64,000 nt of DNA, taken from assembly GCA_965209205.1 (NCBI GenBank), contig CBDBQC010000003.1:822882-886881 (forward strand), read 5' to 3'. The DNA is from Dehalococcoidia bacterium. Lineage in GTDB: Bacteria > Chloroflexota > Dehalococcoidia > Bin125. The translations under genes and the position numbers were made by a program. A model generated the notes under the pieces. The model was not told the origin of the DNA. It saw nothing but the letters and a program-made list of their open reading frames with translations, and made no database searches. Below are positions 6,218 to 64,000 of the stretch, in pieces (positions within the stretch are counted from its first letter, which is position 1; every line of letters starts with the position of its first letter).

Positions 6218-7386
6218 GGAGACCTTTGCGTAACTCCCCGGAAGCGGCAGAGTAAGTGGCGGGGGGACGGCAGCGGGAGGGCCGCATGTACCGCCAGACC
6301 GGGGAGCTCACGTTCGCGGACGCGATGATGGCCGAGGGGATGGGCCGCAACGCGGTGCTCGAACGGCTCGACGCCGCGCTCGACTGGGAGCGCATCGCCA
6401 CGATCGTCGGGGAGGTGCATGCGGCGCCGGAGGGCCGGCCCGCCTACCCGCCGCTGTCGATGCTCCGGATCATGCTCCTGCAGCAGTGGTTCGACGCCTC
6501 GGACCCGGCCATCGAAGAGGCGCTGCGCGACCGCATCTCGTTCCGCCGCTTCGCCCGGCTCGGCTGGGACGACGGCACCCCGGACCACTCGACGATCAGC
6601 CGCTTCCGCCACCAGCTCACCGGGCGCGGCCTCGCCGAGCGCGTGTTCGACGAAATCGCCCGCCAGCTCGACGCGCGGGGGCTGCTCGTCAAGGAGGGCA
6701 CGCTCCTGGACGCCACCCTCGTCGAGGCGGCGGTGCGGCGCCCGCCGTACGGGCGCGGCCCCGGCGCGCGCAGTGCGACCGACCCCGACGCCGCGTGGAC
6801 CCGCAAGGGCGGCCGCGCCGCCTTCGGCTACAAGGCGCACCTCGCGATGGACGGGGGCTCCGGCCTGATCCGCCGGGCGCTGCTGACGCCGGCGAACGTG
6901 AACGACACCGAGGTCGCCGACCGCTTGGTGAGCGGCGACGAGGCGGCGGTCTACGCCGACAAGGCGTACGAGTCGAAGGACCGGCGCGCGCGACTGCGGG
7001 CGCAGGGGGTCAAGGACCGGATCATGCACCGCGCGCACAAACACCAGCGGGCGCTGCCGCACTGGCAGCGGCGGCGCAACGCGCTGATCTCGCGGGTGCG
7101 GGCGCCGGTCGAGCAGGTCTTCGGGACGCTGAAGCGCAGCTACGGCTACCGGCGGGTGCGCTACACCGGCCTCGATCGCAACGCGACCGAGCTCTGGCTC
7201 AAGCTCTCGGCCTACAACCTGCGCCGCGCCGAACGCCTCCTCGCCGCGGCGTAGGCGCCGTGCGCCCGCCGCCCGCCGGCGCTCCGTAAGCGCCGCCCGT
7301 AACCGCCCACTCCCGCCTTCCCCGCGCCCCGATCCGCCCGGACGCCGCCCTTTTTCGCGCCCACCCCGAGTAACGCAAAGGTCTCC
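6218..7386 (+). mobile_element. IS5-family insertion sequence (1169 bp)
   Basis: 19-bp terminal inverted repeats GGAGACCTTTGCGTAACTC (6218-6236) and GAGTAACGCAAAGGTCTCC (7368-7386), one mismatch, enclosing an intact DDE transposase; no clear target duplication seen. Confidence 0.93.
6286..7254 (+). CDS. IS5-family DDE transposase
   Basis: GRPAYPPLSMLRIMLLQQWF, PDHSTISRFR, LLDATLV, DPDAAW..KG...FGYKAH, VYADKAY and RAPVEQVFGTLK motifs; ATG after GGGAGG. Confidence 0.94.
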   Translation: MYRQTGELTFADAMMAEGMGRNAVLERLDAALDWERIATIVGEVHAAPEGRPAYPPLSMLRIMLLQQWFDASDPAIEEALRDRISFRRFARLGWDDGTPDHSTISRFRHQLTGRGLAERVFDEIARQLDARGLLVKEGTLLDATLVEAAVRRPPYGRGPGARSATDPDAAWTRKGGRAAFGYKAHLAMDGGSGLIRRALLTPANVNDTEVADRLVSGDEAAVYADKAYESKDRRARLRAQGVKDRIMHRAHKHQRALPHWQRRRNALISRVRAPVEQVFGTLKRSYGYRRVRYTGLDRNATELWLKLSAYNLRRAERLLAAA

Positions 7387-54867: not shown

Positions 54868-55734
54868 GTGCAGGAACTGCAATACGCGAGAGTCAACACG
54901 GTCGACGCGGCCGTCGCCGCGCTCCAGGAGGGCGGCCCCACGGCGCGCGTGCTGGCCGGCGGCACGGACGTCATCGTGCAGGCGCGCGCCCGCGTGCGCG
55001 ACATCGACCTGCTGATCGACGTCAAGGGCATCGACGAGGTCATGCAACTGACGTTCGACGCCGACGGCGGCCTGACCGTCGGCGCGGCCACGCCCTGCTA
55101 CCAGATCTACGGCGACGCCGCCGTGCGCGCGCACTACCCCGCCCTGATCGACTGCAGCACGCTGATCGGCGGCACGGGCATTCAGGGCCGCGCCAGCCTG
55201 GGCGGGAACCTGTGCAACTCCTCCCCCTCGGGCGACTCGCTGCCGGTGATGTACGTGCTGGAGGCCACGGCCGAGATCGCCGGGCCCGGCGGACGCCGCA
55301 CGGTGCCGGCGGAGGACTTCTGCACGGGCCCCGGGCGCAACGTCCTGCAGCCCGGCGAGTTCCTCGTGTCGCTGCACTTCCCGCCGCCGGCGCCCCACAG
55401 CGGGGCGGCCTTCCTGCGCTTCATCCCGCGCAACGAGATGGACATCGCGGTCGTCAACGCGGCCACGCAGCTGCGCTTCGACGGCGACACGGTCTCGTGG
55501 GCGCGGGTCTCGATCGGCGCGACGGCGCCCACGCCGCTGCTGGTCCCCGAGGCGGCCGCCGCGCTCGTCGGCCGGCCGCTCAGCGACGAGACGATCGCCG
55601 CCGCCGCCGCCGCCTCGAAGGCGGCCGCCCGCCCCATCGCCGACATGCGCGGGTCCATCAAGCAACGCAAGCATCTGGCCGCCGTCTACACGCAGCGCAC
55701 GATCGCCATCGCCGCCGATCGCGCGGGCGGTTAG
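54868..55734 (+). CDS. Xanthine dehydrogenase family FAD-binding subunit (CoxM-like)
   Basis: LAGGTD, IQGRASLGGNLCNSSPSGD and ADMRGS motifs. Confidence 0.92.
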   Translation: MQELQYARVNTVDAAVAALQEGGPTARVLAGGTDVIVQARARVRDIDLLIDVKGIDEVMQLTFDADGGLTVGAATPCYQIYGDAAVRAHYPALIDCSTLIGGTGIQGRASLGGNLCNSSPSGDSLPVMYVLEATAEIAGPGGRRTVPAEDFCTGPGRNVLQPGEFLVSLHFPPPAPHSGAAFLRFIPRNEMDIAVVNAATQLRFDGDTVSWARVSIGATAPTPLLVPEAAAALVGRPLSDETIAAAAAASKAAARPIADMRGSIKQRKHLAAVYTQRTIAIAADRAGG

Positions 55735-58627: not shown

Positions 58628-58912
58628 GTGGCCGTCGTCATCGTGCCGCCGCTGCTGCGCCCGCTGACCGGCGACGCCGACCGCATCAAGGTCGAGGGCG
58701 CCACGCTGCGCCGCGTGATCAACGAGCTCGAGGCGCGCCACCCGGGCGTCAAGGCGCGCCTCGTGCAGGGCAACAAGATCCGGCCCGAGATCTCCATCGC
58801 GGTCAACGGCGGCATCGTCGCGGCGGGCCTCGTGGAGCCGATCGCCGAGAACGACGAGATCGTCATCATCCCGGCGATCTCCGGCGGTGCGGCCCCGCCC
58901 GGCCCCCTCTGA
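58628..58912 (+). CDS. MoaD/ThiS-family ubiquitin-like sulfur carrier with a C-terminal extension
   Basis: Beta-grasp pattern; IAVNG...IIPAISGG followed by AAPPGPL-stop. Confidence 0.85.
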   Translation: MAVVIVPPLLRPLTGDADRIKVEGATLRRVINELEARHPGVKARLVQGNKIRPEISIAVNGGIVAAGLVEPIAENDEIVIIPAISGGAAPPGPL

Positions 58913-59723: not shown

Positions 59724-61042
59724 ACCCCCGAGGGCGGCGCCTCGTCGGGGCCGGGCGCCGTCAGCAGCGCGATGCTGGCCGTGAAGCCGTGCAGGTAGTT
59801 GCTGCCGCCCACGGGCCCGATCTCGCCGTTGCAGAACAGCCCCGCCGTGGGGATCGGCCCCAGCGCCTCGGCGACCGCCGCCGCGTCGTGGTGCGGCGTG
59901 CCGAACAGCCCCTGGCCGCGCCCGTTGCAGGCGCACAGCACCGACCCCAGCACGACCTCCCCCTCGTCGATCGCGGCCCGCGCGGCGGCCAGGTGCGCGC
60001 GCAGGTCGTCGTCGGCCGCGCCGGCGTCGCGGAACTGGAACTGGAACGTCTGGCCCACGCGGGGTACGGCGCTGATCGCGATCGCGCCCGCGTTGCGGTC
60101 GACGCCCACGATGTTGCGGATCAGGAAGTCGCCGCGGCCGTGCTGCTCCTGGTACTCGTTCATCGCCAGCCCCACGAGCAGGTTGTAGCCCACCCGCTCG
60201 CGCGTGGCGTCGTCCAGCTCGGCCAGCATCTCCTTGAGCACGTCCAGCGCCGGCCGCGATCCGATCGACTGCACCAGGTTGCGCTCGCAGGCGGTGATCG
60301 TCAGCGGGCGGCCCAGCGGCTCGGCCCCCTGCGCCACGATGGGGCGCACGCGCAGTCCCTTGACGCCCAGCAGCACCGCCCCCTCGTCGTAGGCCTTCCC
60401 GTCGAGGAAGAGCGCCGTGCCGAGGTCGCGGTTGTGCGCCGATGCCATCCCGCCCAGCAGCACGATGTCGGACAGCCGCCCCTGCAAACCCCGCACGAGG
60501 TTGTCGGTGTTGAGGCTGAACGGGTCCGAGAAGATCAGCCAGGTGTCCGCGCCCGCCGCCGGGAGCACGGCCAAGTCCTCCTCCTTCGTGACGCCGGGGA
60601 TGACGGCGATCGGCGTGAACTCCGCCTCGGGCATCGCCAGTGTCAGCACCGACAGCGCCGCCCCGTCCTCGGCCTCCACGCCGCTGCCGATGACGCTCTG
60701 GCCCGTGCAGCCGATGATGTGCCGCGCCTGCAGGCCCTCCTGCAGCCGGCGGCTGAGCGCGCCGTGGTGGCCGAACAGCGAGTCGGCGAAGACGATCGCC
60801 AAGTCGACGGGCCCCTGCCCGCCCAGCTCCTCGATGATCGCCGCGGCGGCCTCTTCCCAGGTGTCGCCGCCGCGCAGCGCCGCGCGGGCCCGGGCCGCGC
60901 CGGCGGTCACGCTGGCCGAGGCCGCCAGCGGCGCGTCCTCCTCCATCAGATCCAGCGGTTCGAGATCGATCTCGGCCGGGTCGACGGCCGTGGGCGGCTG
61001 GGGCGGGACATCGCGGGTCTGGGTGGGTTCAGGGTCGGGCAT
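59720..61042 (-). CDS. FIST-domain (FIST_N/FIST_C) protein
   Basis: IIGCTG, IFSDPF, GGMAS, VAQG..P.G, DFLIRN and CNGRG...GLFCNGEIGP motifs. Confidence 0.92.
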   Translation of the reverse strand: MPDPEPTQTRDVPPQPPTAVDPAEIDLEPLDLMEEDAPLAASASVTAGAARARAALRGGDTWEEAAAAIIEELGGQGPVDLAIVFADSLFGHHGALSRRLQEGLQARHIIGCTGQSVIGSGVEAEDGAALSVLTLAMPEAEFTPIAVIPGVTKEEDLAVLPAAGADTWLIFSDPFSLNTDNLVRGLQGRLSDIVLLGGMASAHNRDLGTALFLDGKAYDEGAVLLGVKGLRVRPIVAQGAEPLGRPLTITACERNLVQSIGSRPALDVLKEMLAELDDATRERVGYNLLVGLAMNEYQEQHGRGDFLIRNIVGVDRNAGAIAISAVPRVGQTFQFQFRDAGAADDDLRAHLAAARAAIDEGEVVLGSVLCACNGRGQGLFGTPHHDAAAVAEALGPIPTAGLFCNGEIGPVGGSNYLHGFTASIALLTAPGPDEAPPSGV

Positions 61043-61149
61043 GGCGCTCCTCCTGGTGCTGGCGGGCTGCTCCCGGCGAGTGTAGCGACGCGCGCGCCCT
61101 GCGGGTCGCGGGCGCGGCGCGACGCCGGGCCGGTCCCTACGATGGCGTC

Positions 61150-62070
61150 GTGCCAGGCAACACCAGCGTCCCCGGCCCCGACGCCCTGCGCCCGATCGAG
61201 CAGGCGGCCGTCGCGATCGCCCGCGAGGGCGGCGCGCTCATCCTGGACCGCTTCCGCTCCACGCTCAACGTCGAGTTCAAGGGTGGGCACAAGGACGACC
61301 CCGTCACCGAGGTCGACCGCGCCGTCGAGGCGCAGGTGCTGGAGCGCGTCAAACGCGACTTCCCCGACCACGCCGTGCTGGGCGAGGAGGGCACCAGCCA
61401 CGGCCCCGCCGGCGCCGACTTCGTCTGGGCCATCGACCCGCTGGACGGCACGACCAACTTCATCAACGGCCTGGGCATCTTCTGTTGCTCCATCGGCGTG
61501 CTCTGGCGCGGCATGCCGGTCGTCGGCGCCGTGTTCCTGCCCGGGGGCCGCCACGCCGCGGCGGGCGTGTACCACTCGCGCCGGGGCGGCGGCGCGTTCT
61601 TCGAGGATGAGGCGTTCCGCTTCGAGGTCACGGGCCTGCCCGTGGGCTCGCGGGTGACGTCGATGCCGGCCGGCCTGACCGGCGTCGATGGTCGCAGCGG
61701 GCGGCATCAGTTCGGCACTGCGCGCACGCTGGGCAGCGCCGCCGCCGAGCTCGTCCTCACGGCCGAGGGCACGTTCCAGGTGGGCGTCTTCCACAGCCTG
61801 CGCATCTGGGACGTCGCGGCCGGCGCGGCGCTCTGCCGCGAGGCCGGCGCCGATGTCTGGACGCGGCCCAACCGCGGCGGCCCCTGGCGCCCGCTCGAGC
61901 ACCTCCGCGGCGCATCCGATCGCGCGCCGGGCCTCGACGAGCTGCGCGGCTGGAACGACTGGCTGGCGGCCGGCGAGCCGGGCCTGCTGCCGCATCTGCC
62001 GCGCGACCTGCAGCGCGCGCAGTCGCCGCTGGCCGTCGCGCGGCGGATGATCTTCGGCAAGGACGACTGA
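61150..62070 (+). CDS. Inositol monophosphatase family protein
   Basis: DPVTEVD, LGEEG, WAIDPLDGTTNF, GSAA and WDVAAG motifs. Confidence 0.92.
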   Translation: MPGNTSVPGPDALRPIEQAAVAIAREGGALILDRFRSTLNVEFKGGHKDDPVTEVDRAVEAQVLERVKRDFPDHAVLGEEGTSHGPAGADFVWAIDPLDGTTNFINGLGIFCCSIGVLWRGMPVVGAVFLPGGRHAAAGVYHSRRGGGAFFEDEAFRFEVTGLPVGSRVTSMPAGLTGVDGRSGRHQFGTARTLGSAAAELVLTAEGTFQVGVFHSLRIWDVAAGAALCREAGADVWTRPNRGGPWRPLEHLRGASDRAPGLDELRGWNDWLAAGEPGLLPHLPRDLQRAQSPLAVARRMIFGKDD

Positions 62071-62081
62071 GCCGGCGTCCC

Positions 62082-62765
62082 ATGCGCGTCGTCACGGGCA
62101 AGACGAGCGAAGAGATGGCGTCGGCCGAGTTCGGGCGCTTGGCCGCCCCCTACGACACCCGTTGGCTCGACATCGGCGCCGGCGACGGCGCGCTCACCTA
62201 CCGGCTGGCGGCCCAGTTCCCCGACGTGCTCTGCCTGGGCCTCGACCCGAACGCGGAGGCGATGGCTGTGAACGCGCGCCGCGCCCGGCGCAAGCCCGAG
62301 CGCGGTGGCCGCGCCAACTGCCTCTTCGTCGTGGGCGCCGTCGAGGCGCCGCCCGCGGAGCTGGCCGGGTTGGCGGGGGCGATCACGATCAACTTCCCCT
62401 GGGCGCGGCTGCTCGAGATCGTGCTGGGGGTTGCTGATGGCGACGCGCCCGCCCTCGCCGCGGCGCTGTCGGCGCTGGCCGCGCCCGATTGCGCGCTGCA
62501 ACTCCTGCTCAACGAGGTCACCGAGCTGCCGGCCGTCCCCACGGTCGAGCCCGCCATGCTGGCCGAGCGGCTGGCTCCGGCGTTCGCCGCGACCGGCTTC
62601 GGGATCGACGCCGCCGGCTGGCTGGCGACGGATGCGCGCGTGCGCAGCCGCTGGGGCGGGCGGCTGATCCGGGGCAGCGGCCGGCGCGTCGTGCGGCTGC
62701 GGGCGTCGCGCGGCGCGCCCGGCGATCGCGCCCGCGCGATCCTGGACGGAGTCGCGACGGTCTAA
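62082..62765 (+). CDS. 16S rRNA m1A1408 methyltransferase homologue (NpmA/KamB family)
   Basis: LDIGAGDG, GLDP, RKPERGG.ANCLFV, INFPW and SRWGGRL, colinear with NpmA motifs as recalled from memory. Confidence 0.8.
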   Translation: MRVVTGKTSEEMASAEFGRLAAPYDTRWLDIGAGDGALTYRLAAQFPDVLCLGLDPNAEAMAVNARRARRKPERGGRANCLFVVGAVEAPPAELAGLAGAITINFPWARLLEIVLGVADGDAPALAAALSALAAPDCALQLLLNEVTELPAVPTVEPAMLAERLAPAFAATGFGIDAAGWLATDARVRSRWGGRLIRGSGRRVVRLRASRGAPGDRARAILDGVATV

Positions 62766-63610
62766 CCGCGCCGCTCCTCAACGATCTTCGTGAGCCGGTC
62801 CAACTCCGGCATCACCTCGTCGGCCCCCGCCGAGGGCAGCATGAAGATGCACCGCGCGACGCCCATCTGCTCGTAGGCGTCGAGGTCGGCCGGCTCGGCG
62901 CCGAAGACCGACGTGGGGATCGCGTCGGCGTCGCGGCCCAGCGCCGTGGCCCGCTCGCGGATGTCGGCCATGCCGCGCTCGATGCGGTCGGGCCGCGGTA
63001 TGTTAGGCAGCCAGCCGTCGCCCCACTCGGCGACGCGCTGCCGGGCCCAGCGACTGCCCGCCCCGATGTACACGGGCGGGTGCGGCGACTGCGCCGGCTT
63101 GGGGTAGCTGAACGTGCGCGGGACGCTCACGTAGCGGCCGTGGTATTCGGCCTCCTCCTCCGTCCATAGCGCCTTCATCGCGGCCACCCGTTCCGCCGTC
63201 ACCTGCCAGCGCCGCTCGAACGGCGTCCCCAGCGGCTCCATCTCCTCCCGCAGCCAGCCCGCGCCGATGCCGAACAGGAAGCGCCCGCCCGACATCAGGT
63301 CCAGCGTCGCGATGCGCTTGGCCAGCGCGATCGGCTCATGCTCGGTGACGAGGCAGATGCCGGTGCCGACCTTCAGCGTCGTCGTCTTGGCCGCGACCCC
63401 GGCCAGCAGCGTGAGCGGGTCCTGACAGCGGAAATACGGTTCCGGCAGCGACCCGTCGGGCGTGCCCGGGAACGGCGTCTCGCGGCGCACGGGCATGTGC
63501 ACGTGCTCCGGCACCCAGAACGAGTCGAAGCCGCGCGCCTCGACTTCCGGCCCCAACTCGAGCGCCGGGATCGCCTTGTCGGTCGCGAAGATGAAGATTC
63601 CGTAGTCCAT
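62762..63610 (-). CDS. LLM-class F420-dependent oxidoreductase (Rv2161c-like)
   Basis: FWVPEHVHMP, HEPIALAKRIATLD..SGGR and PKPAQSPHPP motifs. Confidence 0.92.
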   Translation of the reverse strand: MDYGIFIFATDKAIPALELGPEVEARGFDSFWVPEHVHMPVRRETPFPGTPDGSLPEPYFRCQDPLTLLAGVAAKTTTLKVGTGICLVTEHEPIALAKRIATLDLMSGGRFLFGIGAGWLREEMEPLGTPFERRWQVTAERVAAMKALWTEEEAEYHGRYVSVPRTFSYPKPAQSPHPPVYIGAGSRWARQRVAEWGDGWLPNIPRPDRIERGMADIRERATALGRDADAIPTSVFGAEPADLDAYEQMGVARCIFMLPSAGADEVMPELDRLTKIVEERRG

Positions 63611-63647: not shown

Positions 63648-64000
63648 CTAGCGTCTCCGACCCCCGCGGGGCGCGCCCGCGCCCGGCTTGCGGGCGCTGT
63701 GCAGCGCGACGGCGCCCAGGCCCATGCGTTCGTAGCCGGGCCCGGCCGCGCCCGCCGCGCGCAGCAGCGCGACCATCGAATCCGCGTCGGGATGACCCTC
63801 GAGCGAGCGCCGCAGGTAGTGGTAGGCCGACCGCCGCCCCGACGCCCAGCCCGCCGCCGGCGTCACCACCCGCTCGACGCCGAAGCGCGTCAGCGCTCCC
63901 CACGCCCCCGGCGGGGCGTGTGTCATGTCGAGCGCCACCAGCCGGCCGCCGGGCCGCAGCACGCGCAGCATCTCGGCGAACGCGGCCGGCAGGTCGGTCA
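63648..64000 (-). CDS. UbiE/MenG-type methyltransferase, C-terminal part (runs off the window)
   Basis: DLPAAFAEMLRVLRPGGRL...AYHYLRRSL. Confidence 0.8.
   Translation of the reverse strand, partial: TDLPAAFAEMLRVLRPGGRLVALDMTHAPPGAWGALTRFGVERVVTPAAGWASGRRSAYHYLRRSLEGHPDADSMVALLRAAGAAGPGYERMGLGAVALHSARKPGAGAPRGGRRR

Follow-up and report, generated by a model that had tools for sequence, protein, structure and literature searches.

Kanamycin, neomycin and apramycin are blocked when 16S rRNA is methylated at N1 of A1408 (m1A1408) (PMC4705659, PMC12391297). The enzymes that write this mark form the NpmA/Kam family, whose members differ in their genetic setting. NpmA from Escherichia coli pARS3 (PDB 3MTE, 3P2E and 4OX9) is mobile, with npmA2 residing on Tn7734 and the integrative and conjugative element (ICE) Tn7740 in Clostridioides difficile (PMC12271512), while KamB from Streptoalloteichus tenebrarius (PDB 3MQ2) serves in the self-resistance of an aminoglycoside producer. 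Chromosomal Kam-family enzymes in nonproducers are established by the Sorangium cellulosum So ce56 enzyme Kmr (PDB 4RWZ and 4RX1), a 16S rRNA m1A1408 methyltransferase, and by CacKam from Catenulispora acidiphila (PDB 4X1O) (PMC4705659). Further members are NpmB1 (PDB 7EHF), UncKam (PDB 7JLZ) and WarA from Nocardia wallacei. WarA is reportedly another chromosomal example in a nonproducer, as Hershko et al. are said to have described in 2024. We found no paper linking Dehalococcoidia to this enzyme family. A 64,000-nucleotide window of contig CBDBQC010000003.1 from a Dehalococcoidia bacterium (assembly GCA_965209205.1), the whole stretch of DNA that was analyzed and from whose first letter all positions are counted, contains an open reading frame (ORF) of 227 codons whose product is probably an NpmA/Kam-family 16S rRNA (adenine1408-N1) methyltransferase, intrinsic to the organism and inherited with its chromosome.

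The protein matches the Pfam family NpmA (PF24675) with 164 bits compared to a gathering cut-off of 60 (E 4e-48), and the match extends over residues 2 to 208 and model positions 1 to 212 of 214. At this E value the match to the family lies far beyond chance, and a six-frame search of the genome gives the same result. Generic methyltransferase domains of Pfam reach at most 27 bits on the ORF. The four best models of NCBIfam are those of KamB, WarA, NpmB and NpmA. Sequence searches of the PDB return A1408 methyltransferases as all of the ten top matches, in the order of first appearance Kmr (4RWZ; E 6e-33), CacKam, KamB, NpmB1, NpmA and UncKam, before the eleventh match drops to an E value of 0.015. 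When 1.84 billion representative proteins are searched with phmmer over the full length, 376 clusters are found at an E value of ≤1e-10. Related genes are found in metagenome-assembled genomes (MAGs) of Acidobacteriota, several orders of Chloroflexota and other phyla, and the congeneric orthologue PZC49541.1 carries the NCBI name 16S rRNA (adenine(1408)-N(1))-methyltransferase.

The AlphaFold2 model of the protein, built on 32 homologues, shows a mean predicted local distance difference test score (pLDDT) of 93 and a predicted template modeling score (pTM) of 0.92. It adopts the class I S-adenosylmethionine (SAM)-dependent methyltransferase fold with the N-terminal β-hairpin and the expanded β5/6 and β6/7 linkers by which the family is recognized (PMC4705659), the β5/6 linker being shorter than in NpmA and Kmr. 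Strands at residues 2 to 4 and 9 to 11 precede the Rossmann-like core. The sole soft region of the model is the β6/7 linker with a pLDDT of 61 to 79, as expected of a mobile linker (PMC4705659). Foldseek comparison with the PDB places Kmr, CacKam, NpmA, KamB, NpmB1 or UncKam at ranks 1 to 19, with template modeling (TM) scores of 0.69 to 0.82 by query length and 0.76 to 0.90 by target length. Between the A1408 methyltransferases and the TrmB-like folds that follow, the E value jumps from 9e-15 to 1e-8, a step of ∼10^6-fold.

TrmB, the tRNA m7G46 methyltransferase, is rejected as a competitor for the assignment. The TrmB model TIGR00091 scores 15.5 bits compared to a cut-off of 112.65, TrmB and METTL1 entries of the PDB appear at an E value of 0.05, and TrmB-like folds are found by Foldseek only from rank 20 onward (E 1e-8; TM score of ∼0.57 to 0.61). 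An earlier note, made from the DNA letters of this window, had read the ORF as a homologue of the A1408 methyltransferases and had named a best match to TrmB or another methyltransferase as the outcome that would speak against this reading. The profile hidden Markov models (HMMs), the PDB sequences and the fold all favor the 16S rRNA m1A1408 methyltransferases instead.

The residues expected at the active center were followed in an alignment of the methyltransferase and 20 orthologues from related genomes (n = 21) with NpmA, Kmr, CacKam and KamB; the NpmA sequence used was checked to be 100% identical to that of PDB entries 3P2E and 3MTE. D30, D55, W107, W191, R194 and R201 are invariant in all 21 sequences and match residues of NpmA and CacKam whose mutation abolishes activity (PMC4705659). 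The D30A substitution kills the activity of Kmr, the equivalent D36A does likewise in CacKam, and substitutions of the aspartate and tryptophan residues abolish activity in CacKam, KamB and NpmA (PMC4705659). Position 189 is serine or threonine in all 21 sequences, and E88 is glutamate in 18 of them. The basic β2/3 linker contains the invariant residues R70, P72, G75 and G76, with K71 being lysine or arginine in 20 of the 21. Both tryptophans, W107 and W191, are also invariant in a separate alignment of 32 sequences.

All residues that the earlier note had listed for the protein are confirmed. Direct indexing of the translation finds D30, G32, G34, D35, G36, D55-P56, K71-P72, G75-G76, N79, E88 and F105-P106-W107 all in place, as well as the late SRWGGRL motif at residues 189 to 195. 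The gap-free alignment of the first 111 residues with NpmA, proposed there, holds up, as BLASTP aligns residues 1 to 116 of both proteins without a gap. The FPWAR motif is present as reported, but the concern that it departs from the usual FPWG(T/S) falls away: Kmr, an enzyme with activity in vivo, has FPWAS at this place (PMC4705659), and FPWA is found in 20 of the 21 aligned family orthologues, with FPWS in the remaining one. The positions of the gene, its functional motifs and its annotated neighbors are collected in Table 1.

Table 1. Features of the methyltransferase locus (positions in the window; residue numbers are those of the methyltransferase)
Feature	Position	Strand	Basis and remarks
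Methyltransferase gene, NpmA/Kam family (PF24675), class I SAM-dependent	62082..62765	+	227 codons plus TAA; Pfam, PDB, AlphaFold2, Foldseek
SAM-binding motif I, D30-I-G-A-G-D-G36	62169..62189	+	Aligned with NpmA D30...G36; D30, G32, G34, D35 and G36 invariant in 21/21
D55-P56, contact to the SAM ribose hydroxyls (role from PMC4705659)	62244..62249	+	D55 invariant in 21/21 and in all four reference enzymes
Basic β2/3 linker, R66-R-A-R-R-K-P-E-R-G-G76, presumed 30S docking surface (role from PMC4705659)	62277..62309	+	Aligned with NpmA K66-K67-I-I-K70-K71-P-S-K-G-G
F105-P106-W107, first tryptophan of the A1408 sandwich	62394..62402	+	Invariant in 21/21; W invariant in NpmA, Kmr, CacKam and KamB
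β6/7 linker, S189-R-W191-G-G-R194-L-I-R-G-S-G-R201, corresponding to NpmA S195, W197, R200 and R207	62646..62684	+	W191, R194, L195 and R201 invariant in 21/21
C-terminal extension, residues 211 to 227, with a predicted helix at 215 to 224	62712..62762	+	Alignment and AlphaFold2; one subclade only (genera g1, g2, g4, g5, g6 and g10)
Inositol-monophosphatase-family (IMPase) gene	61150..62070	+	Pfam Inositol_P, 168 bits; stop 11 bp upstream of the methyltransferase ATG
F420-dependent luciferase-like (LLM) oxidoreductase gene	62762..63610	-	TIGR03619, 258 bits (cut-off 167); convergent
menG/ubiE (demethylmenaquinone methyltransferase), 3' part, runs off the window	63648..64000	-	TIGR01934, 170 bits (cut-off 158); first gene of the menG-tetR-menA block

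Among the described enzymes, Kmr is the closest in both sequence and fold (Foldseek E 5e-22 at 37% identity). The two proteins share FPWA(S/R), D30, D55, W107 and the late tryptophan, and both are encoded on the chromosome of environmental bacteria. Crystals of Kmr show a flexible β6/7 linker (PMC4705659), and this linker is the low-confidence region of the present model. In contrast to the protein described here, Kmr has a β5/6 linker that is ∼7 residues longer, does not possess the C-terminal helix and is placed in another clade of the tree; its activity was shown in E. coli (PMC4705659), whereas that of the present enzyme is predicted. NpmA belongs to the same Pfam family and shows a TM score of 0.80 by query length and 0.82 to 0.90 by target length. 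Counterparts of its residues D30, D55, E88, P106, W107, S195, W197, R200 and R207 are found together with the basic β2/3 linker, but E146 and R153 of NpmA have no counterpart, and a mobile gene stands against a syntenic core gene. KamB gives the top NCBIfam match with 108 bits and a TM score of 0.82, and CacKam superimposes with a TM score of 0.79 to 0.81. Both show identical SAM-pocket residues and tryptophans, differing in MPWG in place of FPWA and in belonging to a separate clade. The producer self-resistance role of KamB has no match in the setting of the present gene, which shows no biosynthetic context of that kind. WarA, NpmB1 and UncKam are matched as family members by HMM or fold, and the present protein is an equivalog of none of them.

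Several properties of the gene and its product weigh against the assignment. The cut-offs of all named-enzyme models are missed by a wide margin, with 108 of 350 bits for KamB (NF000363), 89 of 305 for WarA (NF051863), 66 of 460 for NpmB (NF040634) and 62 of 470 for NpmA (NF000030). Identity amounts to 35 to 37% with Kmr in the Foldseek alignments and to 27% overall with NpmA by BLASTP (E 2e-24). The β5/6 linker is ∼7 residues shorter than those of NpmA and Kmr and does not contain the segment that holds E146 and R153 of NpmA, which contact R207 and the rRNA (PMC4705659). A Shine-Dalgarno-like sequence is not visible in the 11-bp spacer before the ATG. Amino acid changes accumulate ∼2 to 5 times faster than in the flanking genes, with a nonsynonymous rate (dN) of 0.10 compared to 0.02 to 0.07. 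Scores this far below protein-specific cut-offs indicate that the protein belongs to the family without being an allele or equivalog of one of the named resistance enzymes. Relative to the characterized enzymes, a 4-residue insert follows residue 116. Active members of the family already differ in the details of their β5/6 and β6/7 linkers (PMC4705659), and the shortened β5/6 linker, the insert and the C-terminal helix therefore lower confidence only moderately.

The ratio of nonsynonymous to synonymous substitution rates (dN/dS) within the genus is 0.27 to 0.54 for the methyltransferase and 0.10 to 0.35 for five flanking genes. The gene is under purifying selection, which is weaker than in its neighbors or in a typical housekeeping gene. 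Purifying selection combined with unvarying catalytic positions fits an enzyme that functions and tolerates change at its surface, and does not fit a pseudogene. The ORF starts with ATG, the first possible start of the open frame, and ends with TAA. Its GC content by codon position of 0.78/0.58/0.94 is the coding signature also seen in the adjoining genes.

The substrate is present in the host itself. The 16S rRNA gene of the genome, at 189980 to 191474 of contig C4, is complete, and its decoding site reads GCCCGTCAC, which places A1408 in the 16S rRNA of the organism, at ∼191342 of contig C4. The target nucleotide A1408, the expression and the activity of the enzyme are inferred, and a reaction mechanism can be proposed by homology to NpmA, KamB, Kmr and CacKam. 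Here, the arginine-rich β2/3 linker (R66 to G76) would dock on the assembled 30S subunit, at the surface formed by the 16S rRNA. The nucleotide A1408 would then be flipped from helix 44, R201 in the β6/7 linker would hold its phosphate, and the flipped base would be stacked between W107 and W191. In the last step, SAM bound by D30, D55, E88 and S189 would donate its methyl group to N1 of A1408. The resulting m1A1408 would leave the ribosomes of the organism insensitive to aminoglycosides of the kanamycin, neomycin and apramycin types.

The host genome comprises 2.7 Mb in 4 contigs and is 89% complete. Each of the 65 genomes that represent the species of the host's family, from 10 genera, carries one intact copy of the NpmA-family gene, free of internal stops, and these include genomes of 66 to 89% completeness; genome sizes in this family range from 2.2 to 3.8 Mb. 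Among 401 sampled genomes of Dehalococcoidia, 53 contain the gene, concentrated in a few families, and 348 do not. In the gene tree, the copies of the host's family are monophyletic (Shimodaira-Hasegawa-like approximate likelihood ratio test support of 99) and grouped by genus, with NpmA, Kmr, CacKam and KamB all located across a branch of 0.46 changes per site. The congeneric orthologue occurs with the same gene order in metagenome assemblies of JGI and ENA, from samples that we take to be marine from their identifiers.

Many NpmA-family matches outside the host's family show one or two in-frame stops (genomes G065, G081, G140, G173, G189, G199, G212, G236 and G410). In one family, f30, such stops are found in the genes of all four sampled genomes, compared to 0 of 65 in the host's family. 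The stop-containing copies in other families of Dehalococcoidia may have become pseudogenes, or they may be recoded or split.

The gene has no relatives on plasmids in PLSDB (tblastn; E 1e-3), and no transposase, integrase or other mobility gene is found among the neighbors examined. A repeat scan of 59 to 64 kb gave no more than weak matches of the kind that GC-rich DNA produces by chance, a tRNA scan found no believable tRNA near the gene, and no exact copy of the protein on other contigs is on record. GC content at third codon positions (GC3) is 0.94, as in the neighbors and typical of the host, and overall GC around the gene is 0.75 to 0.77, compared to 0.71 to 0.73 for the four contigs of the genome. 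Acquired 16S rRNA methyltransferases are recognized by a link to a plasmid, transposon, ICE or integron and by patchy spread, neither of which is seen here. The methyltransferase gene is old, vertically inherited and chromosomal, as follows from the absence of PLSDB relatives, mobility genes and repeats, the host-like composition, the presence in all 65 genomes, the synteny and the genus-wise tree. The earlier note was right about the host-like GC content and the missing mobile element, and its proposal of an intrinsic environmental homologue is strengthened, since throughout one family of Dehalococcoidia the gene belongs to the core, in single copy and in conserved synteny.

The role for which the lineage keeps the gene allows other readings. 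A real, if lesser, possibility is that the chemistry is the same but that the selected role of m1A1408 is that of a constitutive native mark of the decoding center that tunes translation, with aminoglycoside insensitivity as a by-product. A single intact copy in 65 of 65 genomes from 10 genera of free-living, presumably marine MAGs, with genomes of 2.2 to 3.8 Mb, fits core rRNA modification genes better than accessory resistance genes. The gene is surrounded by menaquinone, F420-oxidoreductase and IMPase genes, with no resistance island or biosynthetic cluster, and in E. coli KamB made translation more accurate at a low fitness cost (PMC12406665). RsmB/RsmF enzymes are nearly absent in the class, so the clash with 5-methylcytosine (m5C) at position 1407 seen for NpmA in E. 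coli (PMC3923132) does not arise. No match to PF01189 above the cut-off is found in the host genome or in 59 of the 61 Dehalococcoidia genomes searched, compared to matches in 13 of 14 control genomes, and the class seems to be without m5C967 and m5C1407 writers of the RsmB/RsmF type. An anticorrelation with RsmF as the cause of the distribution was considered and rejected, as PF01189 is missing from nearly the whole class, with or without the NpmA-family gene. Against a native mark speak the 348 of 401 sampled genomes without the gene, which indicate that the class does not need it, and its faster evolution relative to its neighbors. Intrinsic drug protection and a native decoding role would predict the same sequences throughout, and nothing measured separates the two as the reason why the lineage keeps the gene. 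A wider version, tentative and rather doubtful, would have m1A1408 as a constitutive, stoichiometric native mark in the whole family, written by a dedicated Kam clade with a trimmed β5/6 linker, and such lineage-core genes as ancestral to producer self-resistance and to the clinical npm genes.

A shift of the NpmA fold to another rRNA nucleotide or another RNA, which would confer no aminoglycoside resistance, is unlikely. The protein belongs to a separate, uncharacterized clade with all four characterized references beyond the long branch, its β5/6 linker has lost the region of NpmA E146 and R153, and nonsynonymous change is fast; yet both tryptophans of the A1408 sandwich and the arginines of the β6/7 linker are invariant, the basic β2/3 linker is kept, and linker details differ already among active members (PMC4705659). 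To our knowledge, no member of the NpmA/Kam family with another target has been described. Inactivation of the enzyme, as a decaying relic, or recent acquisition as a mobile resistance gene is very unlikely. The dN/dS above that of the neighbors and the in-frame stops in several copies of other families would be in line with it, but all 65 copies are intact with D30, D55, W107, W191, R194 and R201 unvarying and dN/dS below 1, and the host-like GC3, cross-genus synteny, genus-wise gene tree and lack of PLSDB relatives, mobility genes and repeats speak against a recent arrival. Least probable is a self-resistance gene of an aminoglycoside producer, as is kamB in Streptoalloteichus tenebrarius. 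Some aminocyclitol pathways use enzymes of the inositol monophosphatase family, and an IMPase-family gene lies directly upstream. The NpmA/Kam family was also first found in producers (PMC2995053, PMC2760815). However, no aminotransferase, glycosyltransferase or cyclitol synthase is present among the genes examined at 50 to 69 kb, no genome-wide search for biosynthetic clusters having been made; half of the genera lose the adjacency to the IMPase gene yet keep the methyltransferase, and the genomes are small (2.2 to 3.8 Mb). The preferred reading remains an intrinsic A1408 methyltransferase.

The IMPase gene was correctly placed 11 bp upstream of the methyltransferase gene in the earlier note, and the two genes are probably cotranscribed. 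It does not reach the cut-offs of the equivalog models of HisN, SuhB and CysQ. Adjacency of the two genes is found in at least genera g1 and g5; the IMPase gene lies nearby in g2 and g6 and is not found there in g3, g7, g8 and g9. A promoter and terminator scan of 60900 to 63000 found no site, including between the IMPase and methyltransferase genes, and is uninformative in DNA of 75% GC. Downstream, the stop codons of the methyltransferase gene (TAA, +) and the LLM gene (TAG, -) overlap at 62762 to 62765, so that a terminator would have no place between the two genes; a congeneric MAG shows this overlap too (its positions 6669 to 6672).

The menG-tetR-menA block, whose MenA scores 309 bits with NF004751, anchors the locus across genera, with LLM, IMPase and FIST genes close by. 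Among the genes examined at 50 to 69 kb, those for which family matches were sought encode an α/β-hydrolase and a Mo-hydroxylase as well as FIST, IMPase, LLM, MenG, TetR and MenA. Upstream neighbors vary in other genera and look, by inspection of their sequences without HMMs, like a Zn-alcohol dehydrogenase, a short-chain dehydrogenase/reductase and a PNPOx-like protein. A constant partner gene of the methyltransferase was not found across the genera compared, nor was a coupling to rsmI, and the host genome contains no DUF371 (PF04027) gene. Farther upstream, a ThiS/MoaD-like ORF of 94 amino acids (58628 to 58912, +) follows the large subunit of the Mo-hydroxylase and extends ∼9 residues beyond the usual C-terminal Gly-Gly (…ISGGAAPPGPL); its orthologue in the congeneric MAG (2457 to 2768) matches Pfam ThiS. 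A tRNA-Arg(TCG) predicted by ARAGORN at 55574 to 55651 (-) is probably spurious in DNA this rich in GC, as it lies wholly inside a coding gene of the + strand (54868 to 55734; GC3 of 0.97).

The gene is an uncharacterized, lineage-core member of the known NpmA/Kam family and not a new kind of system. Its description in the earlier note as a possible reservoir of pan-aminoglycoside resistance is unproven, given the distance from the named models. There is no sign of an imminent threat from mobile resistance, and the practical weight of the gene as a resistance reservoir is low because of its 27% identity to NpmA, its 75% GC content, the lack of a mobile link and its being missed by resistance gene models. 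Provided that the enzyme is active, the ribosomes of an entire family of abundant, uncultured and presumably marine Chloroflexota would be natively insensitive to drugs of the kanamycin, neomycin and apramycin classes, a further case in which an rRNA mark known from clinical resistance is an old trait that environmental bacteria inherit vertically. The matter is relevant to the origin of the npm and kam genes and to a possible physiological role of m1A1408 in decoding. Should the mark prove to be native to these ribosomes, a methylation known for resistance would be an ordinary housekeeping rRNA modification in some uncultured lineages.

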